A DNA stretch of 64,000 bases, from the NCBI GenBank assembly GCA_964634875.1, contig CAZWKA010000007.1, forward strand, positions 1,649-65,648. The letters are read 5' to 3'. The stretch comes from an uncultured Gammaproteobacteria bacterium (GTDB lineage: Bacteria; Patescibacteriota; Patescibacteriia; Magasanikbacterales; GWA2-37-8). The notes below the pieces were generated by a model. It ran no database searches. It was not told the origin of the DNA and worked only from the letters and a program-made list of their open reading frames with translations. This document shows positions 443-64,000 of this stretch, one piece after another; position 1 is the stretch's first letter, and each line of letters starts with the position of its first letter. The translations under genes were made by a program, and so were the position numbers.

Positions 443-1582
443 TTAGATCACCATGACGCCGTAGCCTAACATGGCACCGAGGCCGGCGCCGACCAGTAGG
501 AAGACGACCAAGTCTCCCTCGTTCACGAGACCCAGCTCGAAATCCTCCTCAAGCAGGAGGAACGTGCTGGCACACGTAGTGTTCCCGAACCGCTCGATGT
601 TAGTGGGGACTTTTCGCGGATCGAGCTTGAGCGCATCGACAGCATCCTGAATTCGCCACCTGTTTGCCTGGTGGAAATAGACGCGCTTGACCCGATCGAA
701 CGAGAACGGGTAGCCGAGAACGGGCTCAACTTGGACAGCCCAGTCTTCCTTGAGATCCTCGACCGCCTTCAGGATCGACGGGACAAAGATCTCACCCACG
801 AGTGGGGCATTCATCCTATAGAGCTGATCGAACAAGTTCGAGGCGCGGGGAGGATTACCCGAACCACCGGAACCGTAGGTCACGAGCTCGTGCTCGAGCG
901 TACGTTCACGCGCAGCCAAGAGGCCGCGCGGCTTCTGACCACTCGAACTATCAACCTCCACAATCTTGAAAACCGAGGTCGAAGCACCACTCGCGAAGAC
1001 CAGCGACCCCCAAGCCCACGGATCAGGATGCATCCGTAAGCGCTCTTCCACTTCCTCATCACCAAGAACCACGCCTTCAACGGCGTTCGAGAGGATGAAG
1101 ATAACATACTTGAACATGCGCGAGGCGGCATGGATGAGAATCTCGTGCAGCCCCCACGCGACCGCGGCGCAACCGAGATCCTGCTCAAGAGGATGTGCCT
1201 TACGCAAACCCACCCTGCTCAGAATCTTGCCGAAAGACGTACAGAGGTGCAGATCTTCAAAAGTGCACCCAAGACGCACCACGAGGGTGTGTCTCTGGTT
1301 GAGCTCATCAAGAGGGATCCCTGACTTACGGATAGCCTCTTGAGTCGCCTCAACGCACATTTGGGTGTCATTCCGACCACCCTGCTCGTAGGTCAGGGTC
1401 TGGCCGTTCTCATCAATCTGATGGCAGATTGTCCGAGGACCAAAGAGGTCGTACACCTTCGGAGCCGTTATCAGCTTCCCCTTGTGAGCGGGACGCGAGC
1501 GCCGCAGCGAACTCGCAACAGGGATCGGCTGAGGAAGGAATTTCCCCATCCCAATCAGATGAATCTCAGTTCGCGTAGCCAT
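443..1582 (-). CDS. 3-oxoacyl-ACP synthase III (FabH / KAS III) family ketosynthase. GC-rich foreign cassette.
   Basis: Catalytic Cys motif DLGCAAVAWGL, His motif HQANRWRI and Asn motif GNTTCAS match the FabH triad. The start at 1582 is preceded by AAAGGAG with 7-nt spacing. High GC compared with neighbouring genes. Confidence 0.75.
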   Translation of the reverse strand: MATRTEIHLIGMGKFLPQPIPVASSLRRSRPAHKGKLITAPKVYDLFGPRTICHQIDENGQTLTYEQGGRNDTQMCVEATQEAIRKSGIPLDELNQRHTLVVRLGCTFEDLHLCTSFGKILSRVGLRKAHPLEQDLGCAAVAWGLHEILIHAASRMFKYVIFILSNAVEGVVLGDEEVEERLRMHPDPWAWGSLVFASGASTSVFKIVEVDSSSGQKPRGLLAARERTLEHELVTYGSGGSGNPPRASNLFDQLYRMNAPLVGEIFVPSILKAVEDLKEDWAVQVEPVLGYPFSFDRVKRVYFHQANRWRIQDAVDALKLDPRKVPTNIERFGNTTCASTFLLLEEDFELGLVNEGDLVVFLLVGAGLGAMLGYGVMVI

Positions 1583-1932
1583 GATCAGGCTCCTTTTGCG
1601 AAGGCGGTGCCGATCACGGCAGCCTTTTGGTAAATATCTCGTTTCCCCTCCCACATAGTGGAGGGGTTGAGGAAGCGTGCTGCCATTATGAAATCCTCCT
1701 GGGCTGGGGTGGACAAGGCATTACCAGTTTTTTCCCACTCTGGGACTTGGACGAGAAGGGACCGGCTGTTTCCCTTCACTTTTTTCCTAAAACTCATCAG
1801 AAAAAAAATAAAAGGAACATCCAGTCCCGTTTATTGCTTTTTAAAGAGCGTGGCAAAGTTATGTAGAAAACTTAGACATGGCCGAATACAGCCCTTTACC
1901 CTATCTCAAAAAGGCCTTTTTGGCAAGGGTGC

Positions 1933-2679
1933 TTATCCCCGCGCGATGACCAATCCCCAAACCTCTTGAGTACCAGCATTTTTTAAAACCCGAGCACATT
2001 CTAACATCGTGCTTCCAGTAGTAAAAACATCATCAAGAAGTACTACTCGTTCTGGTGCAACATTCTTTTGCCAGCAAAAGGCTTCTTTCAAATTTTGCCG
2101 CCGTTCGACCCCGTTTAAGCGGGCCTGCTGCGGAGTGTCTTTTATCCGGTAAAGCCCGTCAACAAGTAGTTGAACACCAGAATCCTCACCTAACACGCTA
2201 ACAAGATGTGTCCCCAACACCTGTGCTTGATTAAAGCCCCGGCGTAGTTCGCGCTTGGGATGGAGCGGCACAGGAATTATGGAGACCGATTTTTGCGTCA
2301 CATCGCCAGCTGTAAGCCACGGAGGTTTGTGTTCGGTCAAATAATCTTTGAATATTTTTACCCAAACCTGTCCGGAATCCGCTGCCCCTTGGTACTTGAG
2401 CGCCTTAATAAGCTTGGCGGGAGGAGCTGTTTCATCATAGTTAAACAAAGCCGTCAGCCCAAGAAGCGGACTGACGGCACTGCATGAATTACAAATTTTT
2501 CCCTGAGTAGTCGGCACGCTACACACCGGACACGATACTTCACTTAAAAAAGGATATTGTTTTTGGCAAACAACACACCACCACTGACCCTCGCTCGAAC
2601 AACTGACGCAAAAAACAGGAAACAGCACTGACGCAAGATACTTATGGAGATCCTTAAAAAACATAGAGCCGAAAATCAA
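1933..2679 (-). CDS. comFC: ComF family protein (ComFC-like: N-terminal double zinc ribbon plus phosphoribosyltransferase domain)
   Basis: Four CxxC pairs at the N-terminus. C-terminal PRTase motif VVLLDDVFTTGSTM. Confidence 0.8.
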   Translation of the reverse strand: MIFGSMFFKDLHKYLASVLFPVFCVSCSSEGQWWCVVCQKQYPFLSEVSCPVCSVPTTQGKICNSCSAVSPLLGLTALFNYDETAPPAKLIKALKYQGAADSGQVWVKIFKDYLTEHKPPWLTAGDVTQKSVSIIPVPLHPKRELRRGFNQAQVLGTHLVSVLGEDSGVQLLVDGLYRIKDTPQQARLNGVERRQNLKEAFCWQKNVAPERVVLLDDVFTTGSTMLECARVLKNAGTQEVWGLVIARG

Positions 2680-2700
2680 GCGGAGCGACTTCCTTATTTC

Positions 2701-3294
2701 TTATTTTTCCCAAACGAAATTGCTTACGAGCCACGACGAACCTGAGCGCACCATGGTAACGGTAATATTTTGCTGGGAAGTGGTGGTCGCACCATCCTTC
2801 TGCTGCGTACGGACAGTTTTAAAATATAATTCAGCCGTATCAGGCGTCCACGCTTTCATTTCCATTGTAACGACCTGAGTAGTAACACCTACAAAACTAG
2901 TAGCAGGGGTCGTGCTTTGAGGCTTGATCCGCTGCCAAACTTCTGGCGTTACCAACACCTGAACCTCAGTAACGTTTTGACTGTTATTATCACTGGAATA
3001 CGTACCATACCGCTCCACAAAAACACGGGCGAGTTGTTTTACCCCATTTTGAAGGATTTCTTCAGAACTTGCCTGGCGGACCGGAAGACCCGCAGGAATT
3101 TCGGTAGGCTGTTGGGTTGAGCCGGTCGGGATGCCACCCTGGCCGTCTGGAGGCAGCAGCGTGTCACCTGCCGGGTTTTGTCCGGGAGTTTCTTTGTTTG
3201 CCCGAGAGCGGATAAACAAGGCGACACCTACCACTGCTATAACAAGCACAACGATACCAACGATGATAAAGATGCGAGAGCGCAAGGAAAGCAT
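2701..3294 (-). CDS. Hypothetical membrane-anchored protein at the end of the type IV secretion system (T4SS)-like operon (single N-terminal TM helix plus about 160-aa extracytoplasmic domain)
   Basis: N-terminal segment IFIIVGIVVLVIAVVGVALFI. Co-directional with and immediately downstream of VirB4. Confidence 0.5.
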   Translation of the reverse strand: MLSLRSRIFIIVGIVVLVIAVVGVALFIRSRANKETPGQNPAGDTLLPPDGQGGIPTGSTQQPTEIPAGLPVRQASSEEILQNGVKQLARVFVERYGTYSSDNNSQNVTEVQVLVTPEVWQRIKPQSTTPATSFVGVTTQVVTMEMKAWTPDTAELYFKTVRTQQKDGATTTSQQNITVTMVRSGSSWLVSNFVWEK

Positions 3295-3318
3295 AGGGAG
3301 AAAATTAGATAGTAGGAA

Positions 3319-5199
3319 TTAATGGGCGTTTTGCTGATCAAATTCTTTTTTCGCCTTCTCGATATCCAAAAGCTGCTGGGGATTAGTGGTAACAATCTGG
3401 TCTTCGGTATACGAAGCCACTACTTTGATCGCCGCATGCTTAAGACCGGCAAAGAAAATTCCTTCGCCAATACCGCTTTCGAGGAGCAAATATTTTTCGC
3501 TATCGGTCAGCAAGAACACTTTTTGGATCAGATCAATGGCTGCAGGCGACTGGCGCATGAGGAGCTGCAAGGACGAGCTGGTTACGATCGCTTGGCCATA
3601 CTGTGACTTAAGGAAATCATTCACATCCTGAGTGATGGTCGTTACACCCAAGAAGTATTTACGGCAGCGTTTGACGAGCGCATAAATAAACTTGGCACTA
3701 TCTTCATGCTGCATAAGCCACCACGCCTCATCAATAACCAGAATACGTTTTTTGCGCTCACTCCGGACGACATTCCAAATATAGTTCACAATAGCGTAAA
3801 TAGCCAATGGACGGAGTTCATCTTCCAAATCACGAACACTGAAAACAACAAGCTGGTTACGCATGTCGACGTTAGTCGGTGAATTAAAGAGACCGCTAAA
3901 GGTACCCTCGGTAAACTTTTGGAGTTTCAAAACCAGGTCTGCCGAACCCTCCATGCCTTCCAGGATTTCCTGGAGATCCTGCATGATGGGGGCTTGGATA
4001 GTATTTAAATCAGCTTCGGCCGTAATGTCCTTCTTGGCATACGTTTCAATCAGGGCCCGGTCAACAATCGAATCTTCTTGTGTGGTTATACCCCCAAGCA
4101 TAATACGCAGCAAACCTTTGACGGTAATGACTGCACCGCGAATAATATCTTCGGTGGAAAAATCCTTGCCTGTTGGCCGCGGCAGATCAAAAGGGTTAAT
4201 TTTACTTTCGCTCGACAAGGAAATATTGATGTACGTTCCACCCACCGCATCGGACAAATGTTTATATTCCATTTCTGGGTCAATGATGATAACATCAATA
4301 CCCATCATGAGGCTACGCAATATTTCCAATTTGATCGCATAACTTTTACCAGCACCAGAGGTAGCAAATACTACCATGTTGGCATTTTGCAAAGAAAACC
4401 GATCAAACAAAATCAAGCTATTATTGTGGCGGTTAATACCGTATAAAATTCCATCATCGCTCGTCAGCTCAGCTGAAATAAATGGGAACGAGGCAGCAAT
4501 TGGCGAGGAGTTCATGTTAAACGAGATCATCAGCTCGTCATTACACAGCGGCAGCGTTGAATTGAAGCCTTGTTCACCCTGGAACAAAACCTTGCGACTG
4601 CTAATGAGCTTGGCACCGAAAATACCTTCAATGTCCTCGGAGATTTGATCTAATTTTTCTTTAGTTTCGGCGTAGATAGTAACGTAAAAAGCAAATTGGA
4701 AGAAGTGCTCGACACCCTGAGTCAGGTTATCACGAAGCTGTTCAACATCGCGCAGCGCCGTCTCGCGCAGCGGGTCACGAGGGGCACCTTTATCAGCATC
4801 AGCATTAATCTGGGCTTCAAGCGCACCAACTTTGTTCTTGAGCTGCTTTAAAATGATCTCCGACTTAACCGGATAAAAGAACATGCTGATATCCATGGTG
4901 ATCGAAAGATTGATGACCGGCGAGCTCCATCCAATTGAAATATACCGAGGGTAAGAAACGACAAAAATAGTCCGGCAAAAGACTGTGCCGACCTGCAAAA
5001 AATTCGTTTCAACATTAAACGCTGCCGGGGCGATCAGGTCTCGGATCGAAACAACGCCTTCGCGGTAGATCCGCTCTTCTTCAAGCGTAATTAACTCCTC
5101 CTGCTCTTTCTTTTTGAGCACACCTTCTTCGCTCGCCAACTTTTTTCGGGCAGCGGAGTCGTCATTTTTACTATTGAGAAATTTTGGTTTAAAAGCCAT
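3319..5199 (-). CDS. virB4: VirB4/TrbE/CagE-family type IV secretion ATPase, Gram-positive-type (626 aa)
   Basis: Walker A motif FATSGAGKS. Walker B / 'DEAW' motif ILVIDEAWWL. Overall VirB4 architecture. Confidence 0.85.
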   Translation of the reverse strand: MAFKPKFLNSKNDDSAARKKLASEEGVLKKKEQEELITLEEERIYREGVVSIRDLIAPAAFNVETNFLQVGTVFCRTIFVVSYPRYISIGWSSPVINLSITMDISMFFYPVKSEIILKQLKNKVGALEAQINADADKGAPRDPLRETALRDVEQLRDNLTQGVEHFFQFAFYVTIYAETKEKLDQISEDIEGIFGAKLISSRKVLFQGEQGFNSTLPLCNDELMISFNMNSSPIAASFPFISAELTSDDGILYGINRHNNSLILFDRFSLQNANMVVFATSGAGKSYAIKLEILRSLMMGIDVIIIDPEMEYKHLSDAVGGTYINISLSSESKINPFDLPRPTGKDFSTEDIIRGAVITVKGLLRIMLGGITTQEDSIVDRALIETYAKKDITAEADLNTIQAPIMQDLQEILEGMEGSADLVLKLQKFTEGTFSGLFNSPTNVDMRNQLVVFSVRDLEDELRPLAIYAIVNYIWNVVRSERKKRILVIDEAWWLMQHEDSAKFIYALVKRCRKYFLGVTTITQDVNDFLKSQYGQAIVTSSSLQLLMRQSPAAIDLIQKVFLLTDSEKYLLLESGIGEGIFFAGLKHAAIKVVASYTEDQIVTTNPQQLLDIEKAKKEFDQQNAH

Positions 5200-5263
5200 A
5201 CCTTCATTGGAACACTAGAGCATTAAAACACCAGAACAAAAGGGTGTTTTAATGTTTTCATGA

Positions 5264-5953
5264 TTAAATCCCCTCTTCAACCTGCAGGTCGCTGAGCGCG
5301 GGCAGGTGTTCAGTGAGAGCAATATCTGGGTTATACGTGGAATAATACAACTCGATCAGCGCTTGGGTATCAAGCCTCACAATTGTAAGGCCCATACTTG
5401 ACAAACCGGATTCAATCTGGCGAACACGCATGTCAAGATCGTATTTACGCTGCAAAAACTTTTCTCCTTTAAGATGTATGGCATTTGCAGGATTCAGGAC
5501 TTCAGTAATACGGGTCCAAAAACTTTTTTGGTGGTTAGACACTGGATCATACGGGACAACTACAAAAAATTGTTTACTCATAATTTCACCAAGGCTGATC
5601 AGCTCGGTAACAAATGAGCGATAATCAGCGATCTGAGCACGGAGGAGTTCGTTAACCTGTTCACGCTCTTGTTGTAGGAGCTTGTCGAGGTAAGGTTTGA
5701 TATACAGCTTCCGGCTTTGGATAAGTACTTGAAGCGGATATTCGAGCGAGTTTAAAAATGAAACATACGAAGAAATAATCGCGTTTTGCTCATCTTCATT
5801 TTTGAGGGCAAAATTAATACTTGAAACCAGGAGCACAGCCCGAAGCGTCCCGTCTTTCATGATAACGGTGTCATTCTTAATTTCGCCGATCAAAAGATGG
5901 AGTTGTGACGGGACCAGTTTTTTTTTACTTTTGGCTGCATGTTTGTTTTTCAT
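5264..5953 (-). CDS. VirB4 N-terminal-domain-like protein (CagE/TrbE/VirB N-terminal domain family), encoded as a separate ORF upstream of the ATPase
   Basis: The segment LVPSQLHLLIGEIKNDTVIMKDGTLRAVLLVSSINF resembles the conserved start of VirB4 N-domains (for example the pKM101 TraB segment YLPYIGHLSDHIVLLEDGSIMSIARIDG). A 64-nt gap containing stops separates it from the ATPase ORF. Confidence 0.45.
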   Translation of the reverse strand: MKNKHAAKSKKKLVPSQLHLLIGEIKNDTVIMKDGTLRAVLLVSSINFALKNEDEQNAIISSYVSFLNSLEYPLQVLIQSRKLYIKPYLDKLLQQEREQVNELLRAQIADYRSFVTELISLGEIMSKQFFVVVPYDPVSNHQKSFWTRITEVLNPANAIHLKGEKFLQRKYDLDMRVRQIESGLSSMGLTIVRLDTQALIELYYSTYNPDIALTEHLPALSDLQVEEGI

Positions 5954-5955
5954 AC

Positions 5956-6384
5956 CTAATTTTCAGCCTTATAATAACCACCCGTATTGACCATCAGTGA
6001 CAAATTACGGATACGCATAGCTGGGACTTGCTTCGAGACCGCTTCAACTGCCAGCTCGGCAGCAGGAACCATTTTGCGCAAATCATTCAACTCACCCGTA
6101 GTATAACTTTTATTCCACACTCGACGGCTCGGACGGCGGGCAGCTTGAAAAATATTGAGCAAAAAATAATGGAATGATTGGCCGTTAATTTTGACAAACG
6201 CTAAAATGATCGCAAAACCACCAATCAACGCCAGCGCAGCAATAAACAATGGCGTGTCGGCTAATTTGAAGACAATAAAAAGCAAGAGCCCAGCCACAAG
6301 CAGAATTACAAATTGGCGGGTCGTTATCGGACCAAAAATCTTGTCTTCAACATCAATAAATTGTGGAACGGTAAATTGATTCAT
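5956..6384 (-). CDS. PrgI-family small membrane protein (VirB3 analogue of Gram-positive conjugation systems)
   Basis: VPQFIDVEDKIFGPITTRQFVILLVAGLLLF matches the PrgI-family signature (..KIKEKFIFGLTKRQ..) followed by two TM helices. It sits immediately upstream of VirB4, as in Gram-positive T4SS loci. Confidence 0.6.
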   Translation of the reverse strand: MNQFTVPQFIDVEDKIFGPITTRQFVILLVAGLLLFIVFKLADTPLFIAALALIGGFAIILAFVKINGQSFHYFLLNIFQAARRPSRRVWNKSYTTGELNDLRKMVPAAELAVEAVSKQVPAMRIRNLSLMVNTGGYYKAEN

Positions 6385-6391
6385 GGTAGGG

Positions 6392-7531
6392 CTAGGTTAA
6401 CTCTTTTTCCATGGAAATAAGGGCGTTTATCTCGGCGATCTGGATTTTGTTCTTATCAACCAGGACAGCACTGAGCGGACGGTGCTCAGCCAAACCTTGG
6501 GTTAATGCTTCCATATACGCCAAATATAATGGCGAGGTCTGCCAGGCATGTAGAGCCTGCAAATAAAGCACGATCGATTCATCTCTCAGGTTAGTGAACT
6601 TTTCCTGTAGACGTTTAGCTGCTTCAGTAGGATTAGCAGCTAAACGACGAAAATCAGTTAAGTTAAAGCGGGCAATTTCATCAACCGGACCAACTTCGAG
6701 TGTCACCTGCGCAACATCACGGACTAAAGGTTTTACCACTGGTTGACTACCTAATTTAAGCGGTGCTTCCAGCGGGCGCGGCTGACGCGGAGCAGACCGG
6801 GTCATTACCGGCGCAGGAGAAGGAGGTGGATTTTTTAGGGGAACCCCCTCTTTTTTAAGAGCTATAAGATCTTTAATTTCTAGAGGAGCAGCTGTGGTGG
6901 CGCTCCCCATAAGGGCATCAAACTCTTTGGATGTTTTTTTTGGCAAAACTGCAGAGGGTTGATGTGTAGGGTGTTTGAAGGCATTAAAGGGCGTGCTGAT
7001 GGCCGGGAACTTGGCGGCCTGAACAATAGCAGGCTCAAGTGTTTTCTTGGGTGGCGGCGTGACTGACCCACCAATTTCGAGGTCAGGGACAACAATATTT
7101 TTGGCAGCAATAGTAAACGCTGACGCAGCTGTTTTGGCGGCGGTTGAGCCGTGACCATCGGCCAGCTGCAAAACTTGCTCTTTTTGTTCATCGTTTAAAC
7201 CAAGACCGCCTTCCGCTACCGGCCTCCCCAAAGCGTTTTCGGTTTCAGCGCGGCTGCGGACGTCTTTAAGATACAGCTGGATAATGCTTCGGAAACGATT
7301 TTGGTTGTCGGGCGAAGCAAGCTTGCCAACCTGTTTCATGATCGCTTCGACTTCTACCCCCCGACTGGCGCTGGCAAGCGGAGTTGCAGGAGTTGCAACA
7401 ACCGGGGCAGGTGTTGCAGCCACGGCTTCAGGATTTTTTTTGAGCGCCTGAAGTTCACCGAGGGTCATGCGAACCACCGTTCCATCGGCTTTTTTCACCG
7501 TAACCATGGGTTGTCCAGTAAGAGGCGCCAT
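6392..7531 (-). CDS. Hypothetical T4SS-associated protein with Pro/Ala/Thr-rich low-complexity segments
   Basis: 379-aa ORF in the operon. Repeats such as AATPAPVVATPATP. No recognisable catalytic motifs. Confidence 0.45.
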   Translation of the reverse strand: MAPLTGQPMVTVKKADGTVVRMTLGELQALKKNPEAVAATPAPVVATPATPLASASRGVEVEAIMKQVGKLASPDNQNRFRSIIQLYLKDVRSRAETENALGRPVAEGGLGLNDEQKEQVLQLADGHGSTAAKTAASAFTIAAKNIVVPDLEIGGSVTPPPKKTLEPAIVQAAKFPAISTPFNAFKHPTHQPSAVLPKKTSKEFDALMGSATTAAPLEIKDLIALKKEGVPLKNPPPSPAPVMTRSAPRQPRPLEAPLKLGSQPVVKPLVRDVAQVTLEVGPVDEIARFNLTDFRRLAANPTEAAKRLQEKFTNLRDESIVLYLQALHAWQTSPLYLAYMEALTQGLAEHRPLSAVLVDKNKIQIAEINALISMEKELT

Positions 7532-7532
7532 G

Positions 7533-8519
7533 CTATAGAGCTAAAAGTTCGTCATTCCAATGGAACTGCCCATCGGACTCATTAAAATAATAGAGATCAT
7601 TAATTTTTTCATCCCGGTATTCTTCAGCGAGGTTACTAAGGAGGTTAAAAACTGCTCCCGGGTCAAGAAACTGCCCAGTAGCATCCTTCGTAAAATTAGC
7701 TTCGACATTTTTCTTAATTTCAGCATACGAAATTTTTTCACGAACCGGTTCTGTCGCTGGTGCCGCAAGCGTTTCTGGGCTAAATTGGGGAGCTATGCCT
7801 GCCGATTCATCTGCCCTTGTTTCAAGGGCAGCGGCAAAATTTTCATACCGATCCGGATTAATGTACGCACTTACAACATAGGGAGCTTTTTCAGGCTCAA
7901 CCCCAACGAAAAAATTCACTAAATCAATAAAACGTTCAACCGTTTCATTAGGATTAGCAAAAAAATAGGCATCAAACAACGGGTCATCTTTAACAAAAAA
8001 GATGGTTTGGATCTTGGATGCTATTTCTGCAGCCTCGATAGAGGTAGCCTGCGGACGCTGCATGCGTTTAACCATTTCAACAACTTCCACAACTGTAACA
8101 TTTTTACCGGCCAACGTGCCGACGATTGCCTCTGATGTTAAGAAGGCATTTCGCATATCACTGTACCAACCGCCAACTTCTGCATCATCAGTCGTGCGTA
8201 ACCCAAGATAGTCAAGTAGTCGATAATGCACATCTACATCAAGTAAAAACGCCGTAGGAATCTGCCGTGCACAAGCAACCTCCACTACAGTTGAACCGCG
8301 GAGATTGGTCAACATTTTCCAGGTAAGATCGGTATACCAGCGAAATAAGCTATAAAAATACTTCCGGTCTTCAAGCGCAGACTTATCAGCAAAAAAATCA
8401 TAAAGCTCTTGCCAAGCAAGTTGCATTTTTTTAGGCTCCCGAGAAAGGCCGCGAAAATCTTCTTCGATCTTGGCGATTTCAGCTGGAGTGTTTTTAAATT
8501 GTGGAATGTTGAAGAACAT
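7533..8519 (-). CDS. Hypothetical T4SS-associated protein
   Basis: 328-aa ORF tightly packed between the VirB6-like gene and the 379-aa gene (the start of 6392..7531 lies 2 nt after its stop). Confidence 0.45.
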   Translation of the reverse strand: MFFNIPQFKNTPAEIAKIEEDFRGLSREPKKMQLAWQELYDFFADKSALEDRKYFYSLFRWYTDLTWKMLTNLRGSTVVEVACARQIPTAFLLDVDVHYRLLDYLGLRTTDDAEVGGWYSDMRNAFLTSEAIVGTLAGKNVTVVEVVEMVKRMQRPQATSIEAAEIASKIQTIFFVKDDPLFDAYFFANPNETVERFIDLVNFFVGVEPEKAPYVVSAYINPDRYENFAAALETRADESAGIAPQFSPETLAAPATEPVREKISYAEIKKNVEANFTKDATGQFLDPGAVFNLLSNLAEEYRDEKINDLYYFNESDGQFHWNDELLAL

Positions 8520-8531
8520 TTTTTATTTTTA

Positions 8532-11342
8532 TTAAAGTTCGATCCTTCTTCCTTGTGGGTCTACATAATGGTCTGTGCCACCCTTTTGAGCATAAATTTC
8601 TTTTAACTTCGTACGCTTGAACAGTGTTTCAAGGCCAGCAGGATCTTTTGCTTTTGCAAGCATCTTAGAGAGCAGGCTCTCAATCTTGTCCTTTGCCATA
8701 TTAGCAAACGCATCGTTGAAATCCTCAATGTTTGTCTTATCGATAGAACTAACAATGTTAGCCGTTACATTACCAAACATGTTGGCAATACGATCTTGGG
8801 CGGCATCGCTCGAAATACTAATCTTTACCTGTCCATTAACTACCGCATTATCGACTGAGCCTCCAAAGCCCTGGATCTTAGTAGCTTTGGACTGCGCGAC
8901 AGACCATTCACGTTTACCACCGTGCCACTTGGCGTCACCGTTAACATCACTCATATCCGCAGCGTGGAAATTGCTTTCTCCGGTCTTAACATTAAAATCT
9001 TCTTTAAATAAGCCAGCCTTATTGACCGCACCATCATCAGCAGAAAAAGCTAAACCGGCAGTGAAGCTCTGCATGAAGCTGCCAAAATTCTTACCAAGAT
9101 TTTGCCTTAATTCTTCTAAGGCTGCATCAATTTCTGGCTTACTTTTACCTACCTGTCGCTGCAAAATAGAGGCAAGCTCATTTGCCTGATGCGCCGCAAC
9201 GTCATCAGCATCAGCGTCATGCTTCAGCGAGTTGCCTGACGCGTCAATCAGGGCAGTAAGTGTACCGTTATCGCCGAACATTGACCCGCGAGAACCGTTA
9301 AACGCCTGGAGCGAGGCCATGTCGGTAATTAAATTTTTAAGCTTACCTTGTTCTTTTTCAAAATTCGTATCACTTGGCGACAAGCCCGCAACAGCCGTCC
9401 GTTGGGCACGAATTTGATCACGTAAAAAGGCTACCTTCTGCATGGTACGATCAAAGTCAGAACTACCCGCCAAATCAATATCCTCTTTGGTATGTTTGGC
9501 AAGCACCTGTTCCTTGTAACGCGGGGTTTGATTGTTATCAGTAAGGTTCTTGTCTTTCGCCTCGGCAACCTGTAACTCTTCAGCACGGTCAAGTTTCTTT
9601 TTGATTTCCTCGGCATTCGCTTGGGCGGTAATAGCGGTATGCTCAAAATCCATGAAGGCCGCATCTTTCTTTTCGATCATCTCTGCTTCCTTTTTGGCAT
9701 ATTTTTCATCTTTTTTCTTTTCAGCCATTTTCTCAACAGCATGCTTTAGCACGCCGCTGCGAAGTTTTGCCCGACCACCGAGTAATTTGCTCGTACCAAA
9801 TGTTTCTTCTTCAATTTTTTCGTAATTTTCAGCTGTATCCTGCCAGTCTTCAACCTTTTTGGCTTTGCGGCGACTGCTTTCACCAATTAAAGGAATTTTC
9901 TTGAATGCAAAAGCAGCAACAGATGCTCCAACCCCAGCCAGACCCTTTTTACCGCGAGCCCAATCCTCTGCTCCTTTAGACCAATCACTGCGTTTTTTAC
10001 CCAAAGCTGCCCAACCGGCACGAGAGATACTAGCAATATTCTTACCCATATTAACCCAATTCTCACCACCAATGACCGGGGCTTTCATGGCCGCAAATTT
10101 TGCGGCTGCAGTTCCAGCATCAACCGCATGTCCACCAGCCCAGCGAGCTGCATTGATGCCGCTGGCGTATTTACCAACAGTCTTGCCAAAGTCGATCGCA
10201 CCACCAACCGCCGACGCCCCTGCTCCACCTAGTTCTTCGGCAGCTTTGGCACCAACCATGAGCATACCGATCGCAATGGCAAAACTGGCCATCTTTGGCC
10301 AGGACATAATGGCTGAAATACCGGCAGCCTGTACGGCAGAACCAATACCATCAGTACCAGCTGAGCCCTCCAGGCGATTCGGTGCCGTGGAATTATCGGA
10401 AATATCTTGGCTTATATTCCCATTACCCAAGGTTACAAATGACAACCAAACAAAAAATAATAAAACTGGCCCCGTAATGACGTTAGCCGTAAACTCACTC
10501 CACCACTTACCGGCGTATGATTCCGTTTGCGGCAAGATACTGAGCACAAAGGCCAAAGGCGATAACACAATCAAGACCCACAAGACAACCATGCGGGCGA
10601 GCAGCATATACAGAAAAACGAACATGACACCCATAACCATGGCAGCAAAGGTAACACCACCAACAGCGGCAATGAATTGCTCGGTAGCCGTAAACTTTGT
10701 CGGCGAAGTTCCCGCGGATAATTCCAATATCTGATTTAATTGGAAGGCGTTGATAAGGTTACCACCAGCAGTAGCAGCAATACCGTTGACGAAGGTGGTC
10801 ATGACAACCTGAGCAACATCAATGATCAAACCGCAGATAGTACGGCTAAAGTTGACCAAGATAGCGGCAAAAATAAATTTGCCAAGCAGTTTTTTCCATT
10901 CGTACTGTTCAAGACCAAGGATCGTTCCAAAAGCAATAATGAGTAAAATAACGACAAAAACCATGTTGGTAATATCACGAACCATTACCCAACCAACATT
11001 TACAGCTGCCGAATCGAGATAGCCATTATAGCCGCCCAAGGTGATAACGAAACTGAGGATAAAAACAGTTAGCCGGATAAATAAACCAGCGATGGCCAAG
11101 ATGATAGTTGCCAAGAGCTCCAACCAGAAAGCAGGCTCGATCAAGCGACCGATATCCGTTGCGGCATAGCTTGGCAGCGCAAGGACAGAACTGATAGCAA
11201 GGCCAACCACCGAACAAATCAAAAAAAGCGCAACAAACTTTCGTCTGTTACGAAGAAACGAACCGACCGTCTGAAGACACATGGAGACGCTCGCGAGCAC
11301 AAGAAAAAGTTCAAGATCAAAACTGAACGTAGTATACCACAT
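8532..11342 (-). CDS. VirB6/TrbL-like polytopic membrane protein with a long (about 500 aa) hydrophilic, coiled-coil-rich C-terminal extension
   Basis: About 8-10 predicted TM helices in the first roughly 430 aa. Lys/Glu-rich coiled-coil stretch (KKKDEKYAKKEAEMIEKK). Position within the T4SS operon. Confidence 0.5.
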   Translation of the reverse strand: MWYTTFSFDLELFLVLASVSMCLQTVGSFLRNRRKFVALFLICSVVGLAISSVLALPSYAATDIGRLIEPAFWLELLATIILAIAGLFIRLTVFILSFVITLGGYNGYLDSAAVNVGWVMVRDITNMVFVVILLIIAFGTILGLEQYEWKKLLGKFIFAAILVNFSRTICGLIIDVAQVVMTTFVNGIAATAGGNLINAFQLNQILELSAGTSPTKFTATEQFIAAVGGVTFAAMVMGVMFVFLYMLLARMVVLWVLIVLSPLAFVLSILPQTESYAGKWWSEFTANVITGPVLLFFVWLSFVTLGNGNISQDISDNSTAPNRLEGSAGTDGIGSAVQAAGISAIMSWPKMASFAIAIGMLMVGAKAAEELGGAGASAVGGAIDFGKTVGKYASGINAARWAGGHAVDAGTAAAKFAAMKAPVIGGENWVNMGKNIASISRAGWAALGKKRSDWSKGAEDWARGKKGLAGVGASVAAFAFKKIPLIGESSRRKAKKVEDWQDTAENYEKIEEETFGTSKLLGGRAKLRSGVLKHAVEKMAEKKKDEKYAKKEAEMIEKKDAAFMDFEHTAITAQANAEEIKKKLDRAEELQVAEAKDKNLTDNNQTPRYKEQVLAKHTKEDIDLAGSSDFDRTMQKVAFLRDQIRAQRTAVAGLSPSDTNFEKEQGKLKNLITDMASLQAFNGSRGSMFGDNGTLTALIDASGNSLKHDADADDVAAHQANELASILQRQVGKSKPEIDAALEELRQNLGKNFGSFMQSFTAGLAFSADDGAVNKAGLFKEDFNVKTGESNFHAADMSDVNGDAKWHGGKREWSVAQSKATKIQGFGGSVDNAVVNGQVKISISSDAAQDRIANMFGNVTANIVSSIDKTNIEDFNDAFANMAKDKIESLLSKMLAKAKDPAGLETLFKRTKLKEIYAQKGGTDHYVDPQGRRIEL

Positions 11343-11898: not shown

Positions 11899-12459
11899 AT
11901 GAGCACGAAGAAGGAGTCTCTGTGCAAGCCGACCCCCCACAACCACCTCACGCTCGCGGCCCTCATCGCCGCACTCACCCTCAGCAGCGCCTGCGGCGGA
12001 GCCGTGGGGAAGGACGACCTGAACTCGGCCACGGCCAACACGCAGACCTCGATCGCCGACGTCGCCAAGGAGTGCGCCGACTCGAAGAAGGCGAGCGAGG
12101 AGACGAAGAAGGCCTGCGACGACCAGATCAAGAGCTGCGAGGACACGAAGCGGGTCTGCGAGATGCCGACCCCCAGCGCCATGACGACGGCGCGCTGCCA
12201 GGCGCTGATGCCGGCAGCCAACCGCACGTTCACCAAGTGTGGCGCCAAGATGGAGAGCGGCAAGCTGTGGCTCGACGTGGCCAACAAGTCGAACCCCGCC
12301 CTCAAGGACGTGGACTGCGTGGTCAACCTGACCGGCATCCTCGGGGAGGGCACGATCCCCATCAACAACCTCCACGTGACGCAGTGGAGCGACGCGGGCG
12401 ACCTGATCCTCAAGTTCTGGATCGATCACCCGCTCGGACGGACGATCTGCGAGCCCTAG
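11899..12459 (+). CDS. Cysteine-rich lipoprotein, hypothetical. GC-rich foreign cassette.
   Basis: GGAAGGAG sits 7 nt upstream of the ATG. Signal peptide LTLAALIAALTLSSAC with Cys right after the lipobox. 11 Cys in the mature part. The antisense and other-frame ORFs 11794..12486 (-) and 11922..12581 (+) are GC-composition artefacts. Confidence 0.65.
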   Translation: MSTKKESLCKPTPHNHLTLAALIAALTLSSACGGAVGKDDLNSATANTQTSIADVAKECADSKKASEETKKACDDQIKSCEDTKRVCEMPTPSAMTTARCQALMPAANRTFTKCGAKMESGKLWLDVANKSNPALKDVDCVVNLTGILGEGTIPINNLHVTQWSDAGDLILKFWIDHPLGRTICEP

Positions 12460-24495: not shown

Positions 24496-26229
<1,734 letters not shown>

Positions 26230-38153: not shown

Positions 38154-38168
38154 AACAAAAAATATAAA

Positions 38169-46655: not shown

Positions 46656-46749
46656 AGGATTAAAATTAAAAGCTAAAAATAAAAGCTAAAAATAAATGTG
46701 TCACCGTGGCGACTCCACTATTTTTAGTTTTTCGTTTTGCGCTTTACGT
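46656..46749 (-). repeat. Copy 4 of the roughly 85-nt palindromic intra-operon element (infB-trxA spacer)
   Basis: ...aaataaatgtgtcaccgtggcgactccactatttttagtttttcgttttgcgctttac... Confidence 0.55.
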
Positions 46750-54074: not shown

Positions 54075-54263
54075 TTATTACGGACAGTAAAGATCCTCCC
54101 GCTTGTCGGGGGGATTTTTTTATCTCCTTGCTATATTGACAAAAACCACAATCTCACATATACTGAACTGTTTCTTAGCCAGTCGCTCGGGAAATTTCCT
54201 AACCACCTTTTTTGGGTTGGTCAGGGTTCGCCCCGGCTGACTAGGAACACAGGAGGAACGCTA

Positions 54264-55451
54264 ATGTTCAAAGGAAAGATAGAAATTACGGCCATGGTCT
54301 TTGCCGTGCTCGCCGATGAGCGGTTGGGTCTGACGGCCGAACTACAACGGGCCCGCGATGAAGCGGCGGATGCGCAGAAGATCGGCAAGATCGAGAGTTC
54401 GCTGTCCGGCAACCGGGACGAGTGGTTCCGACGGCTCGACAATCTCGAGACGACCACCTTCGACAGGATCGACCTGCCGAAGGACGAGCTGCTCGCGATC
54501 TTCATGGCGGATCTTGCCATAGCGGAAGAGCACACACCCTGCAGTAATGGGTGGGGGCTCGACATGGCCATCCAGATGGTCGAGCAGCGGCTTAGCCCGG
54601 CGCACGGACGCCTGGCAGCCATCTGGCGCATGACCCTCGACGGACTCGCCGAGCGGAACGCCCCACTCGACGCCATGCTCATCACGAAGCTGGCGATCTT
54701 GAACGCCATCCGGCGCGAGCAAACGCCCGATCAACCGGCTATCGACAGTCTCATCAACGAGATCAAGAGTGCTGCGCTCCAGATCGACGAGGCAAAGCGT
54801 CGGAGCCGCGTGCTCTCGTGGCTGCTTCGGCAGGCCGGCATCGTCGCTCGCCGCACTGGCAACTACCCTCTGGCCAGTGAGATGCAGGAGCTGGCGGCCG
54901 AAACCGCCACCGACCGGGCGAACAAAACGATGTACCGCTTCCTCAGCCTGGTCGAACAGCACAACCAGGCGGTGTTCACGGGGAGCGACAACACCCCGTT
55001 CACCGCCCAGGCTCTCGATGACGCCTACGACGACGTCATGGAGGCCATGGGCAAGGGGCACGACTGGGCACCGAACCCCCCGATTCATGTCGTCTGGGCC
55101 TGGTGGCTCGCCGATCTGAGAGGTCCTCAGGACGAGGTGCTCATCGAGCAGACCATCGGCCTCAGCGGCAAGCAGGCCGAAGTCTTCGTGGACTGGATCA
55201 CCCTCATCCAGGCCATCCGGGCCGAGCGCCACGGTGACCACATCGCTGCCACCGAGTTCGCTCTCCGGATCATCGAGACGGCCAAGGGCGACGAGATCCG
55301 TGCGAGCGCCTACGTGCTCCTCGGCAACCTCGCCGTCACCGAGGACGAGCAGGCCAGCTACTACCTTCTGGGCAGCCGCGCCAACAAGAGCGAGGGCCAC
55401 CAGGTGGCCAAGCTCGCCGAGCGCAAGCTGCAGTCGCTGCTGCAGCGCTAA
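54264..55451 (+). CDS. Hypothetical all-alpha cytoplasmic protein (395 aa). GC-rich foreign cassette.
   Basis: AGGAGG 8 nt upstream. The antisense ORF 54342..55400 is an artefact. Confidence 0.55.
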   Translation: MFKGKIEITAMVFAVLADERLGLTAELQRARDEAADAQKIGKIESSLSGNRDEWFRRLDNLETTTFDRIDLPKDELLAIFMADLAIAEEHTPCSNGWGLDMAIQMVEQRLSPAHGRLAAIWRMTLDGLAERNAPLDAMLITKLAILNAIRREQTPDQPAIDSLINEIKSAALQIDEAKRRSRVLSWLLRQAGIVARRTGNYPLASEMQELAAETATDRANKTMYRFLSLVEQHNQAVFTGSDNTPFTAQALDDAYDDVMEAMGKGHDWAPNPPIHVVWAWWLADLRGPQDEVLIEQTIGLSGKQAEVFVDWITLIQAIRAERHGDHIAATEFALRIIETAKGDEIRASAYVLLGNLAVTEDEQASYYLLGSRANKSEGHQVAKLAERKLQSLLQR

Positions 55452-55611
55452 CCCTGCGCCACCACCCTTCCTTTCACAATGGCCGACCGGGCGGCCATCT
55501 CTTCATTCTTGAAAAATACTTTTCACGAGTGAAGATATCCTGACGCTGTTGGGATGCAGATTTCTCTACCTACTTTGCTTACCCAAAAAGATTGAGTATA
55601 CTCAAGGGCGT

Positions 55612-56427
55612 ATGAACCCCACTCAATTTCGCCAAAAAATTTATGCTTACGCTGCTAGCGCAAATCGCCAGCTCCCCTGGCGTGAAACCACCGACCCTTA
55701 CAAAATTTTGGTTTCGGAAATCATGCTCCAGCAAACTCAAGCTGAACGCGTGATTCCAAAATATAAAGCCTTTATTAAACAATTTCCCACTTTCAAAAAA
55801 CTAGCCAACGCAAAACTTCCTGACCTCCTAAGCGCTTGGCAGGGGCTTGGCTACAACCGTCGCGCACTGTCACTCCAAAAAGCTTCCAAAATAGTTATTC
55901 AAAAATACAAAGGAAAAGTACCTAACGATCCCGAACTCCTCAAAGAACTTCCTGGTATCGGACCGGCTACAGCAGCATCGATCGTTGTCTACGCTTTTAA
56001 CCTGCCATTTGTTTTTATTGAAACAAATGTACGCACGGTTTTTATTCATTCTTTTTTTTCGAACCGAACTGATGTTACTGATACTGAGCTACTTCCAATT
56101 ATCACCAAAATGTTAGATCGAGGTAACCCACGTAAATGGTATAATGCGCTCATGGATTATGGGGTTATGCTCAAAAAAACCCATAAAAACCCCAGTCGCG
56201 CGAGCGCCCACCATACCAAGCAATCCACCTTTAAAGGGTCTCTCCGGCAGGTGCGTGGACGAATTATAAAAATAATTACACATAAAAAAAATAGTACCCT
56301 CGAGGAACTTACTAAAGAAACCATTGATCTGCCACAAGCATCGTCCGATACCTTGGATACACTTATTACTCAGCTTGAGAAAGAAGGTTTTTTAAAAAGG
56401 AAAGGCACACGGATCAGTATTGCCTAA
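55612..56427 (+). CDS. HhH-GPD superfamily base-excision glycosylase (MutY/Nth-like)
   Basis: Helix-hairpin-helix segment LPGIGPATAASIVVYAF followed by the catalytic Asp in NALMDYG. The start was chosen at MNPTQF. Confidence 0.7.
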   Translation: MNPTQFRQKIYAYAASANRQLPWRETTDPYKILVSEIMLQQTQAERVIPKYKAFIKQFPTFKKLANAKLPDLLSAWQGLGYNRRALSLQKASKIVIQKYKGKVPNDPELLKELPGIGPATAASIVVYAFNLPFVFIETNVRTVFIHSFFSNRTDVTDTELLPIITKMLDRGNPRKWYNALMDYGVMLKKTHKNPSRASAHHTKQSTFKGSLRQVRGRIIKIITHKKNSTLEELTKETIDLPQASSDTLDTLITQLEKEGFLKRKGTRISIA

Positions 56428-56530: not shown

Positions 56531-57007
56531 ATGGACCACCGAAAGCCGCTAACTGTTACTTCATCCTGGACAGAGTCCCTAGAGCTGGCAACAGCGACCG
56601 TCTCGCTCTTCGCCATGCTCTTCGGCATCGTCTGGTATATGGGTGCTAGCGCTGAAGCCCACTGGATCAGCCCGCCGCTACTGTGGCACCACAATGCGGT
56701 CGGTAAGCCAACCGACTTTTGGTGGTTCCAGGGAGCGTGTGCCACCCTGCTCTACCTCGGCGCCGGGATTGCCTTCTTCTGGTCGTTCATGCGGATCCTC
56801 GCCCGTCACCAGACCAAGGAGAAGCAGCGGATCGCCGACCAGGTCGTCGCTGAGGCGCAATGGGACAAATTGTACGAGTCTTTCTTCACTTCCCCACGCC
56901 CACCCGCCCTCAGTTCAGTGGAGATGGAGACTCACCAACTACCCGTAGCGACTCCAAAGCGACGGACACGTCGTCCGGGGCGCAGAAAAGCAGCCAGAGC
57001 AGCGTAG
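56531..57007 (+). CDS. Hypothetical two-TM membrane protein with a basic C-terminal tail. GC-rich cassette.
   Basis: GGGAGGTG 6 nt upstream. TM helices TATVSLFAMLFGIVWYM and ATLLYLGAGIAFFWSF. Confidence 0.5.
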   Translation: MDHRKPLTVTSSWTESLELATATVSLFAMLFGIVWYMGASAEAHWISPPLLWHHNAVGKPTDFWWFQGACATLLYLGAGIAFFWSFMRILARHQTKEKQRIADQVVAEAQWDKLYESFFTSPRPPALSSVEMETHQLPVATPKRRTRRPGRRKAARAA

Positions 57008-62263: not shown

Positions 62264-62629
62264 ATGATGAGCAAGTTGAACGGCCTGGAGCAGCCTTTTG
62301 TGGAGCTGCTCAAGCGGCTCGATGCCCGAAAGGCGGAAGGGTATGCGCCCGACCGTCGCTACGAGAGCGATGACTACGTCTTTCTGGCAGATGTTGCCGC
62401 ACACGACCCGGACGCTGTCACCAAGCTCGCTGATGACCTGCGCCAGGAGACCGGCAACAGGTTCCACGCTATCTACATGCTGGACCGCGTCCGGGAAGAG
62501 ATGGAGCTGGGAAGCCAGCCTCGACTGGCTCTCGAAGAGCAGATTCACCAGCTTCGGCTTGGCAGCGACCGCATGCGCTTCCGCATGGCATGCGATGGCC
62601 AGCTCCAGAAGAACGACGATGCGTCGTAG
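62264..62629 (+). CDS. Hypothetical 121-aa cytoplasmic protein. GC-rich foreign cassette.
   Basis: GAGGAGG 6 nt upstream. Followed by two hairpins. The overlapping ORFs 62246..62548 (-) and 62298..62774 (+) are artefacts. Confidence 0.5.
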   Translation: MMSKLNGLEQPFVELLKRLDARKAEGYAPDRRYESDDYVFLADVAAHDPDAVTKLADDLRQETGNRFHAIYMLDRVREEMELGSQPRLALEEQIHQLRLGSDRMRFRMACDGQLQKNDDAS

Positions 62630-62815: not shown

Positions 62816-62887
62816 GGCCCCATCGTCTATCGGTTAGGACATTGCCCTTTCAAGGCGAAAAGACGGGTTCGACTCCCGTTGGGGCTA
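62816..62887 (+). tRNA. tRNA-Glu (anticodon UUC)
   Basis: Acceptor GGCCCCA/TGGGGCT. Anticodon loop CTTTCAA with stem TTGCC/GGCGA. T-arm ACGGGTTCGACTCCCGT. Confidence 0.85.
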
Positions 62888-63001
62888 CGAATAAAAATGC
62901 CGCTTAAACAGCGGCATTTTTTGTTGTAACCAAATTGGAAATCGAACTCTCGTGACTTTAGGTCTATAGTATGGTATTTTCATACTACATATATTTTTCC
63001 T

Positions 63002-63637: not shown

Positions 63638-63671
63638 AAGTTTGCAAACTGCTACGAGTAACCCTACACCG

Positions 63672-63702
63672 AAAAACTCCTCTAAAATAGAGGAGTTTTT
63701 TA
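63672..63702 (+). terminator. Rho-independent terminator
   Basis: aaaaactcctctaaaatagaggagtttttt. Confidence 0.6.
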
Positions 63703-63757
63703 TTAAATAATTAAACTACATTTTCTATCTCCAATCTGTATTTTCAGATGGTTCTCA

Positions 63758-63786
63758 TTGACAAATCAGCTTTTTTTTAGTATGTT
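63758..63786 (+). promoter_or_regulatory. Promoter-like TTGACA-N17-TATGTT (same -10 as at 23952)
   Basis: TTGACA at 63758, TATGTT at 63781. Confidence 0.3.
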
Positions 63787-63947
63787 TATTTGTTATTTCT
63801 TGTATCAAATTTCATACCTAAGCAAAATAATTTTTCGCTTAGGTATGAGCTTTGACAGCTCCACGGTTCGTTTACAACGAGTCACGCCACAGAAGCATGA
63901 CTCTACATTTTTGCGATCAATCCACCTACCCCTACCAGGAGGAAACA

Positions 63948-64000
63948 GTGTTGCCGACGACGAAGCAGACCAAACTTGAAGGCCCCCTCTATGACCCAGG
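63948..64000 (+). CDS. Start of another GC-rich cassette gene (partial; runs off the window)
   Basis: AGGAGG at 63937-63942 followed by GTG (63948) / TTG (63951). The downstream sequence is GC-rich and open to the window end. Confidence 0.3.
   Translation, partial: MLPTTKQTKLEGPLYDP

Follow-up and report, generated by a model that had tools for sequence, protein, structure and literature searches.

Why would a genome of moderate GC content, whose core genes carry no recognizable Shine-Dalgarno (SD) sequence, harbor scattered GC-rich genes that do? The question is posed by a 64-kb stretch of contig CAZWKA010000007.1 (the window, meaning the whole stretch analysed), in which a first-pass annotation had picked out at least 14 GC-rich, SD-bearing gene cassettes. 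The source is an uncultured, ultra-small member of Candidatus Magasanikbacteria, within the Candidate Phyla Radiation (CPR, or Patescibacteria), as placed by groEL. We favor, with a probability of about 0.5, the reading that the cassettes belong to a flexible pool of genes, mostly for exported proteins and translated from SD sites, which circulates among Magasanikbacteria-like CPR genomes.

After correction of starts and frames, 15 complete open reading frames (ORFs) and one truncated ORF made up the cassette set, which was compared with a core set of 37 genes. Composition and codon usage are not uniform on computation. The 15 complete cassettes, pooled over 8,337 nt, have a GC content of 0.605, with 0.59, 0.46 and 0.76 at the first, second and third codon positions (GC1, GC2 and GC3); the corresponding values for the 37 core genes (48,033 nt) are 0.469 and 0.55, 0.40 and 0.46. 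The cassettes are thus GC-richer as a pool (60.5% versus 46.9%), as had been claimed, although 27349–27705 is only mildly GC-rich and 32777–33334 (GC 0.50) not at all. Overall GC content of the window is 48.1%, and a 400-nt profile resolves a background of ~46–47% and islands of 55–70%; with the host at ~47%, the earlier description of a low-GC chromosome has to be replaced by a moderate one. Edges of the islands are compositionally sharp, and flanking core genes show no GC3 gradient. A GGAG, GAGG or AGGA core lies at −18 to −4 in 16/16 cassettes versus 1/37 core genes (Fisher p = 1e-12), and a 5-mer SD in 14/16 versus 0/37. Within the GC-rich ORFs themselves, the 4-mer is expected by chance at a rate of 12.7% and the 5-mer at 4.7% (binomial p = 5e-15 and 3e-17). 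Housekeeping genes therefore lack SD sites as described, while the canonical SD said to precede each cassette is present throughout only in its 4-mer core, 32777–33334 having a weak version (GGGAG). Leaders of core genes are T-rich and G-poor (T 38%, G 14%), and the 60-nt initiation regions of cassettes are more strongly folded (mean −10.4 versus −6.4 kcal/mol for core genes, p = 4e-4). Based on these results, the GC and SD dichotomy between cassettes and core genes is confirmed. The cassettes, some of which are referred to below by their first coordinate (c443, c24095 and so on), are as follows.

443–1582, minus strand: FabH-like protein, 379 aa (ketoacyl synthase III C-terminal domain, PF08541); GC 0.57, GC3 0.67, SD AAGGAG.
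11899–12459, plus strand: 186-aa lipoprotein with 10 Cys; GC 0.66, GC3 0.96, SD GGAAGGAG, GC-rich 3′ hairpin; no family match.
23976–24098, plus strand: 40-aa hydrophobic small ORF; SD ACGGAGG; its stop overlaps the next start (ATGA).
24095–24406, plus strand: 103-aa ORF (c24095); GC 0.58, GC3 0.66, SD AAAGGAG.
26713–27159, plus strand: 148-aa probable lipoprotein (LLGC); GC 0.60, GC3 0.71, SD GAAGGAG.
27349–27705, plus strand: 118-aa secreted-type protein; GC 0.50, GC3 0.62, SD GTGGAGGGA.
27716–27979, plus strand: 87-aa protein with a signal-like N-terminus and 5 Cys; GC 0.56, SD GGTAGGAG.
32777–33334, plus strand: 185-aa ORF; GC 0.50, GC3 0.51, weak SD AAGGGAG.
33500–33841, plus strand: 113-aa exported-type Cys-rich protein with 9 Cys; GC 0.59, GC3 0.72, SD CGGAGGGA.
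48963–49475, plus strand: 170-aa lipoprotein (VLAC) with 10 Cys; GC 0.60, GC3 0.71, SD CAAGGAG.
49886–51043, plus strand: 385-aa lipoprotein (LSAC) with 39 Cys (c49886); GC 0.69, GC3 0.96, SD CGGAGGAA.
51221–51748, plus strand: 175-aa lipoprotein (LLGC); GC 0.64, GC3 about 0.86, SD AAAGGAG.
54264–55451, plus strand: 395-aa all-helical tetratricopeptide repeat (TPR) protein with an RRNPP/MalT-domain III-like fold (c54264); GC 0.64, GC3 0.84, SD CAGGAGGAA.
56531–57007, plus strand: 158-aa membrane protein (c56531); GC 0.60, GC3 0.70, SD CGGGAGG.
62264–62629, plus strand: 121-aa cytoplasmic-type protein (c62264); GC 0.61, GC3 0.76, SD CGAGGAGG.
63948–64000, plus strand: start of a GC-rich ORF that runs off the window end; SD CAGGAGGAA.

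Several coordinates differ from those first assigned: 23976–24406 resolves into two ORFs, and starts were moved from 27346 to 27349, from 49888 to 49886 (the earlier frame was off) and from 51220 to 51221. The ORFs at 27349–27705 and 27716–27979 are probably co-transcribed, since the second begins 10 nt past the stop of the first. The first-pass claim that most cassettes have a promoter and terminator of their own held for several of them, which are flanked by near-consensus promoters and hairpins. Sigma-70-like promoters lie at 26649–26676 (11/12, TG), upstream of 26713–27159 and back-to-back with the groES promoter; at 49675–49703, upstream of c49886; at 54136–54164 (11/12), upstream of c54264; and, as promoter-like sequences, at 63758–63786 and 23929–23957, upstream of the truncated ORF and the 40-aa ORF. 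Core genes use the same promoter type. Hairpin terminators follow several cassettes, among them c54264 (55479–55498) and 26713–27159, where the hairpin is AT-rich. A long terminator hairpin (AAAACCCCTGC...GCAGGGGTT) occurs twice in the window (33340–33420 and 33860–33945), once on each side of 33500–33841, and singly in the relative L002 (4500–4580), 3′ of the spermidine-synthase-like gene; it looks as if insertion of 33500–33841 duplicated the hairpin or brought a copy with it. Fifteen of 16 cassettes are on the plus strand (binomial p = 5e-4), which is presumably the lagging strand: its GC skew is negative window-wide, though core genes flip from minus to plus at about 49–52 kb.

The earlier description of the products as mostly small Cys-rich lipoproteins or secreted proteins is borne out in part. 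About 10 of the 15 have an N-terminal hydrophobic segment, four with a strict lipobox and one with a near-lipobox (LLGC), and several are Cys-rich (9, 10, 10 and 39 Cys). Myxococcus-type Cys-rich repeats had been proposed for one product, c49886; it matches no Pfam or NCBIfam family at E ≤ 0.01, and neither does an analogous 589-aa Cys-rich lipoprotein of locus L077. Within c49886 an 85-nt segment recurs (50264–50348 and 50414–50498, 87% identity) at 150-nt spacing, a sign that a CTDQAQCLSGIC-type module was recently duplicated in tandem. Neither 11899–12459 nor c49886 matched Pfam, NCBIfam, PHROGs or PADLOC, and a defence-system identity for the cassettes was rejected on the lack of PADLOC matches.

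Under a single start-choice rule we called ORFs in relatives, at 160 loci around groEL and rny that total about 2.2 Mb (loci outside the window carry L numbers), and defined as GC-rich those with at least +0.08 GC, at least +0.15 GC3, and GC3 the highest of the codon positions. A 5-mer SD precedes 70% of 70 GC-rich ORFs versus 13% of 1,139 conserved genes of normal GC (odds ratio 13, p = 1e-23); variable ORFs of normal GC stand at 16%, and conserved families taken individually at about 0% at the first start. RNase Y departs from this (L097–L176): in 19% of relatives its first candidate start is preceded by an SD-like 5-mer, and in 32% by a 4-mer, a signal that could come from miscalled starts or be a real exception. 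Nearly all GC-rich ORFs in these loci (70/73) are non-conserved. Those that are SD-led lie opposite to their neighbors in 30 cases and in the same orientation in 19, whereas 90% of conserved genes are co-oriented. The GC-rich, SD-led accessory class is a lineage-wide property. In the literature we found no earlier description of GC-rich SD-led islets in CPR; horizontal gene transfer is reported to occur mostly among Patescibacteria (PMC12455944).

Comparison of filled and empty sites, a check proposed at first pass, showed cassette presence to be patchy, with sites empty in L002, L003 and L097. The Wzy–groES gap is about 100 bp in L002, the closest relative found (groEL 93% identical), versus 1.5 kb and three cassettes in the window; 26713–27159 is absent in both L002 and L003. 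In L097 (rny 82% identical) the divergent IF-2/rny gap measures 432 bp versus 3,378 bp in the window, where 48963–49475 is the first of its three cassettes, and the HU–secG gap 135 bp versus 3.1 kb. The latter block holds c54264, c56531 and between them a gene for an HhH-GPD (Nth/MutY-like) glycosylase (55549–56427, plus strand) that is of normal GC and SD-less; as this gene is part of the block missing from L097, the variable block is not wholly GC-rich. The gap between NusA and the spermidine-synthase-like gene is a variable hot spot: it contains 32777–33334 in the window, and the ORFs found there in L002 (96 aa) and L003 (a 200-aa lipoprotein) are GC-rich, SD-led and unrelated. Only c24095 has same-site orthologues in the closest relatives, L002 and L003, downstream of groEL on the opposite strand. 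These are 52–54% identical (tblastn) while groEL is 92–93% identical, and nonsynonymous divergence (dN) is 0.43 for c24095 versus 0.05 for groEL. Synonymous divergence (dS) of flanks and cassettes is decoupled in both directions: between L155 and L156 it is 0.003 for rny and 0.17 for the cassette, and between L013 and L016 it is 0.77 for groEL and 0.27 for the cassette.

Homologues of the cassettes are few. Eight cassettes were found in a collection of 15 billion proteins, all as singletons at 90% identity, and c49886 had no homologue at E ≤ 1e-3 among 5.8e9 proteins. For c54264, no relatives sharing words were found; a full phmmer scan of 1.84 billion representatives recovered 27 distant relatives (20–28% identity), giving 28 family members with the window copy, and a search of JGI metagenomes with the family alignment found no further members. 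The seven contexts read are all SD-less, CPR-like genomes, and in each the GC content of the gene exceeds that of its host (host/gene: L095, 0.37/0.44; L087, 0.41/0.58; L091, 0.42/0.64; L094, 0.44/0.60; L090, 0.46/0.50; window, 0.47/0.64; L086, 0.50/0.68; L092, 0.59/0.69). Across these eight loci gene GC tracks host GC (Spearman 0.80, p = 0.017). Most copies have an SD, including the GC-ameliorated ones in L090 (AGGAGGAGG) and L095 (GGGAGG). Conserved rny–HU synteny of the family, suggested by L087, was rejected, the family being present in 0/80 rny loci from relatives. In L092, whose genome is 59% GC and SD-less, an EamA-type transporter gene (6170–7093) beside the family member is likewise GC-richer than the genes around it (GC 0.63, GC3 0.80) and has the SD GGAGGA.

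The c54264 product is predicted to contain a TPR superhelical peptide-binding domain, with residues 1–70 modelled at low confidence. The fold resembles that of RRNPP receptors (AimR, Rap, PlcR and NprR) and MalT domain III, with identities of only 6–10% and no Pfam match; no helix-turn-helix or phosphatase N-domain is recognizable in the model, its low-confidence residues 1–70 included, and TPR folds match each other promiscuously. No small ORF with a signal peptide is evident beside the gene (54075–54263 and 55452–55548), and the small ORFs that precede the family genes of L087 and L090 bear no relation to one another.

The c443 product has the C-terminal ACP_syn_III domain (PF08541, E = 9e-16, residues 320–393). 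The N-terminal domain PF08545 was not detected in it or in its close relatives P0010–P0015, and is present in more distant matches. The cassette is followed by the start of a HisKA_7TM histidine kinase gene of normal GC (about 1–326, minus strand), which runs off the window start. The nearest homologue (46% identity) is again an island (GC 0.56); it lies between genes for a histidine kinase and arginyl-tRNA synthetase (ArgRS) in a genome of 36% GC, and its SD is GGAGG. In a 35% GC genome, a third copy (34% identity, GC 0.57, GC3 0.64) is found in the same ArgRS...FabH-like–HisKA_7TM order. The N-terminus of the window kinase is 84% identical to that in L082 and 59% to that in L177; ArgRS of the two outside genomes is 36% identical, with dS saturated. 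The first-pass annotation had held that homologous cassettes at the same sites in all relatives would be old and native, and since this adjacency is kept in three deeply diverged genomes, c443 counts as such by that standard. Just downstream of the FabH-like–kinase pair, L177 (6935–7297) and L178 (5340–5702) carry a gene of the bAvd/23S-rRNA-IVP family, whose products are among the accessory proteins linked to diversity-generating retroelements; the window has a member of this Pfam family at 38169–38537. The nearest named FabH-like relative is from a metagenome-assembled genome (MAG) of Acidimicrobiales (38% identity), the sole high-GC lead, and the L177 copy is nearer to that group (44–46%) than to other CPR copies.

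Both hallmarks of the class outlast extensive divergence. Orthologous cassettes in the IF-2/rny gap of L098 and L148 are 31% identical and both have GC3 of 0.90 in 44% GC hosts, where rny is 83% identical with dS of about 3; FabH-like genes have GC3 of 0.58–0.67 in hosts of GC3 0.26–0.46. Neutral decay over >1 substitution per synonymous site should have erased most of the excess. Persistence past saturation therefore calls for either frequent replacement from a GC-rich pool or maintenance of GC, and the decoupled dS histories of cassettes and flanks support replacement. Regional GC-biased conversion was rejected as unlikely, since flanking core genes show no GC3 gradient. SD sites are likewise kept at diverged 5′ untranslated regions (pairs L098/L148, L121/L123, L013/L016 and c24095/L003), and it is unlikely that they are relics of a donor, because L090 and L095 retain an SD with GC at host level.

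These observations can be assembled into a two-layer model. Core genes would start translation without an SD, from leaders that are rich in T, poor in G and little structured. Between syntenic core genes, about 16 small genes would form a second layer, in which every gene or short pair is expressed on its own from a sigma-70-type promoter, with a strong GGAGG-type SD 5–10 nt upstream of the start and a hairpin terminator. The pool would turn over rapidly, intergenic hot spots being the places where its genes are gained, lost or exchanged, probably by DNA uptake (ComEC, ComF) and subsequent recombination. Its GC-rich, SD-using character points to an ultimately foreign, high-GC origin, while the proximate exchange partners would be other CPR genomes and not a high-GC organism. 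Within the recipient the SD is probably functional, as suggested by its conservation between diverged orthologues and after GC decay, and it may compensate for the more structured initiation regions of GC-rich genes. Most products appear to be exported, and the layer is probably a strain-specific cell-surface repertoire suited to an episymbiotic lifestyle; the TPR receptor-like protein and the FabH-like enzyme would be its cytoplasmic members.

Several results weigh against a circulating pool. Most cassettes lack a homologue even in other CPR genomes, so that sharing is demonstrated for few families only. Cassette load is far higher in the window, at about 14% of its bases, than in relatives, at about 3% of ORFs. 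An anti-SD motif is missing in about half of Parcubacteria 16S genes (PMC9297842). Unless replacement occurs often, passive amelioration can hardly account for the GC excess at saturating divergence. Finally, no scars were found at junctions: no target-site duplication, which the first-pass annotation had suggested looking for, was seen at filled versus empty sites among the relatives compared, a whole-window repeat search gave no shared boundary repeats or attC-like inverted repeats at cassette ends, and ORFs scanned within the 64-kb window contain no integrase or transposase domain. Because no recombination or insertion machinery or scars were found, the mechanism of gain and replacement is purely one that we infer.

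Foreign origin, as first proposed, draws support from the variability among relatives, the sharp edges and the 70/73 non-conserved ORFs, and loses it where a direct transfer from a high-GC organism is meant. In that form, each cassette would be a recent import from high-GC, SD-using bacteria, for example the episymbiont's host, with SD sites, codons and terminators not yet ameliorated. GC3 values of up to 0.96, GC raised at all three codon positions, GC-rich 3′ hairpins, sharp island edges, presence or absence that varies among close relatives, DNA-uptake genes and the Acidimicrobiales affinity of the FabH-like proteins, above all the L177 copy, would all be accounted for. We nevertheless think direct import unlikely. 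The high-GC, SD-using donor postulated at first pass was not found: homologues are absent or reside in other SD-less CPR-like genomes, the cassettes looked up being singletons, c49886 without a match and c54264 with only distant, CPR-like relatives, in a collection that includes assemblies from the same sample. No phage, plasmid or viral-contig matches were obtained (no PHROGs matches; no tblastn match in phage or plasmid collections; no relatives of the c54264 family, c54264 itself or c49886 in IMG/VR), and a phage or plasmid origin was rejected. Moreover, FabH-like/kinase adjacency is kept in three deeply diverged genomes, fully ameliorated family members retain the SD, and gene GC correlates with host GC.

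Alternatively, the cassettes could be a native, long-resident class whose GC and SD are actively maintained, either by selection (a regulon dependent on rare codons or on the SD, or mRNA stability) or by gene-specific GC-biased conversion. This would explain why c54264-family genes exceed their host whatever its GC (0.37/0.44 to 0.59/0.69) with both tracking, why the FabH-like gene stays at 0.56–0.57 beside a kinase gene of normal GC in three genomes with ArgRS at 36% identity and dS saturated, why same-site orthologues both have GC3 of 0.90 after saturating divergence, and why the SD is conserved while the 5′ untranslated region diverges. Against residence, most cassettes are missing from the closest relatives and homologue-less; 70/73 GC-rich ORFs in relatives are non-conserved; GC in L090 and L095 has fallen to host level, which makes maintenance less than universal; the flank GC3 gradient expected of regional biased conversion is missing; and no mechanism is known to hold single genes 15–25 GC points above a bacterial genome. 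On balance we regard long residence as doubtful. An extended version is equally tentative: each cell would run two initiation regimes, an SD-independent core and an SD-dependent, GC-rich accessory and surface class, kept distinct over deep time by selection or gene-specific biased conversion and not by recent import, and the second could be switched as a block, through anti-SD availability or tRNAs for rare GC-ending codons, during host attachment.

It is very unlikely that the cassettes are chance ORFs in GC-rich non-coding or RNA elements. GC-rich DNA does contain long ORFs in several frames, and most products lack homologues, but the cassettes show strong codon periodicity in one frame (GC3 far above GC1 and GC2), correctly spaced SD sites, signal peptides and lipoboxes, protein-level conservation between genomes, a Pfam domain in c443 and a confident AlphaFold model for c54264 (pLDDT 84, pTM 0.81), and Rfam matches are limited to two tRNAs. 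Least probable of all, and in our estimate negligible, is that GC-rich DNA from another organism was joined into a CPR contig or inserted synthetically, possibilities raised at first pass. Only the sharp compositional contrast and the origin of the window in a metagenome-assembled contig speak for them. Two Logan contigs that a different pipeline assembled from run SRR12762304 (L001 and L085) match the window at 100% identity for 5,054 and 5,459 nt, spanning Wzy–[three cassettes]–groES–groEL and c54264–HhH-GPD–c56531–SecG–SBP with their core–cassette junctions, cassettes sit with intact ORFs exactly in intergenic gaps beside native promoters and terminators, c24095 has an orthologue at the corresponding site in MAGs of two other studies, and the same gene class recurs in 160 loci from many projects.

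Placement of the window is by groEL (546 aa, 24496–26136, minus strand), whose best relatives, 93–77% identical, are in MAGs labelled Candidatus Magasanikbacteria/Magasanikiibacteriota or Patescibacteria. Core content fits CPR: groES/EL with a CIRCE-like operator, a class I release factor, KsgA, Sua5, YidC, NusA and IF-2, together with RNase Y, HU, SecG, RNase J, leucyl-tRNA synthetase, Fpg and thioredoxin. DNA-uptake genes encode ComEC (38528–40174) and ComF (1933–2679). No 16S rRNA gene was found in the window or in any of 176 loci, and an Rfam scan of the window returned two tRNAs and no other matches; tRNA-Glu (62816–62888) lies 187 nt downstream of c62264, the sole cassette adjoining a tRNA. 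A type IV secretion or conjugation-like cluster (1933–11342, minus strand) of native GC adjoins comF and includes a VirB4-like ATPase split into ORFs of 229 and 626 aa, a PrgI-family protein and large unannotated membrane-type ORFs. A 2,645-aa ORF of native GC (12619–20556, minus strand) has only a marginal CBM_4_9 match and is 60–84% identical, in segments, in L002–L004. The leucyl-tRNA synthetase (1,169 aa, 40880–44389, minus strand) carries NUDIX (aa 388–510) and HAD-like hydrolase (aa 648–803) inserts between the editing and anticodon-binding domains.

Two kinds of AT-rich features were also seen. A long hairpin of 85–95 nt with a GC tip (GTCGCC..GGCGAC) is present in four copies, 60–75% identical, at the following positions.

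22729–22813: AT-rich long hairpin.
26141–26225: AT-rich long hairpin.
35445–35529: AT-rich long hairpin.
46661–46745: AT-rich long hairpin.

Each copy is in a spacer of co-directional core genes, directly 5′ of the next start codon, one being between groES and groEL. Two copies fold clearly better than shuffled sequences (z = −3.2 and −2.6), none matches Rfam, and L002 lacks any spacer at the junction homologous to that of the 35445 copy. At 37424–39028, inverted repeats (36 nt with 89% complementarity and 31 nt with 84%) flank a 1.4-kb segment of low GC (0.35–0.42), which encodes a class I methyltransferase (37527–38153) and the 23S-rRNA-IVP/Avd-like protein (38169–38537) and abuts or overlaps the 3′ end of the ComEC gene; it could be an AT-rich inserted element.

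The class can be set beside several known systems. In the Lawrence–Ochman picture of acquisition and amelioration, acquired islets and ORFans show atypical base composition, and acquired bacterial DNA is usually AT-richer than its host. The cassettes resemble such islets in atypical GC and codon usage, patchy distribution among relatives, location between syntenic core genes, mostly orphan status and fast evolution. They differ in being 13–20 GC points above the host, with no donor or mobile-element hallmarks found; in having homologues in sister CPR genomes that are again GC-rich, with an excess that survives saturated dS; and in using a translation-initiation signal unlike the rest of the genome. 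Integron cassettes and clusters of attC sites lacking an integrase (CALIN) are likewise small, mostly orphan, strain-variable single-gene units, often of unknown function and occasionally in short runs, here three at 26.7–28.0 kb and three at 49.0–51.7 kb. In contrast to these, the repeat search, which included no structure-based attC model, gave no attC-like repeats, the sequences of the 3′ hairpins are unrelated, no integrase is among the window ORFs scanned, units are scattered over 64 kb, and several have their own promoter and terminator; with target-site duplications also lacking, an integron-like or site-specific cassette system was rejected. In Streptomyces, the bldA/TTA regulon is a gene set defined by a rare codon. 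By analogy, a minority of mostly accessory genes with genome-rare codons could tie expression to tRNAs or cellular states; the polarity is opposite (GC-rich codons in a mid- to low-GC genome), the whole gene is shifted, and no regulatory tRNA is implicated. For SD-poor Bacteroidia, two reports describe an SD-led rpsU and ribosomes whose anti-SD is sequestered (PMC7797042, PMC13000453). The parallel is an SD-less core genome with a strong canonical SD on a small minority of genes; in Flavobacterium a single conserved, autoregulated ribosomal-protein gene is SD-led, whereas here there are dozens of variable accessory orphans of foreign-like composition.

CPR bacteria make up a large, uncultured share of bacterial diversity, and little is known of their surface variation and control of expression. 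As a rule, acquired DNA is AT-rich and ameliorates; a persistent GC excess goes against this and raises the question of what holds single genes 15–25 GC points above their genome past synonymous saturation. It may equally be asked whether a ribosome whose core mRNAs ignore the SD uses it for a special class of genes. In practice, GC-based binning and decontamination filters would wrongly remove the cassettes from CPR genomes, while the combination of GC excess and a strong SD in an SD-less genome provides a cheap signature for a strain-variable, mostly exported gene layer of a CPR lineage.

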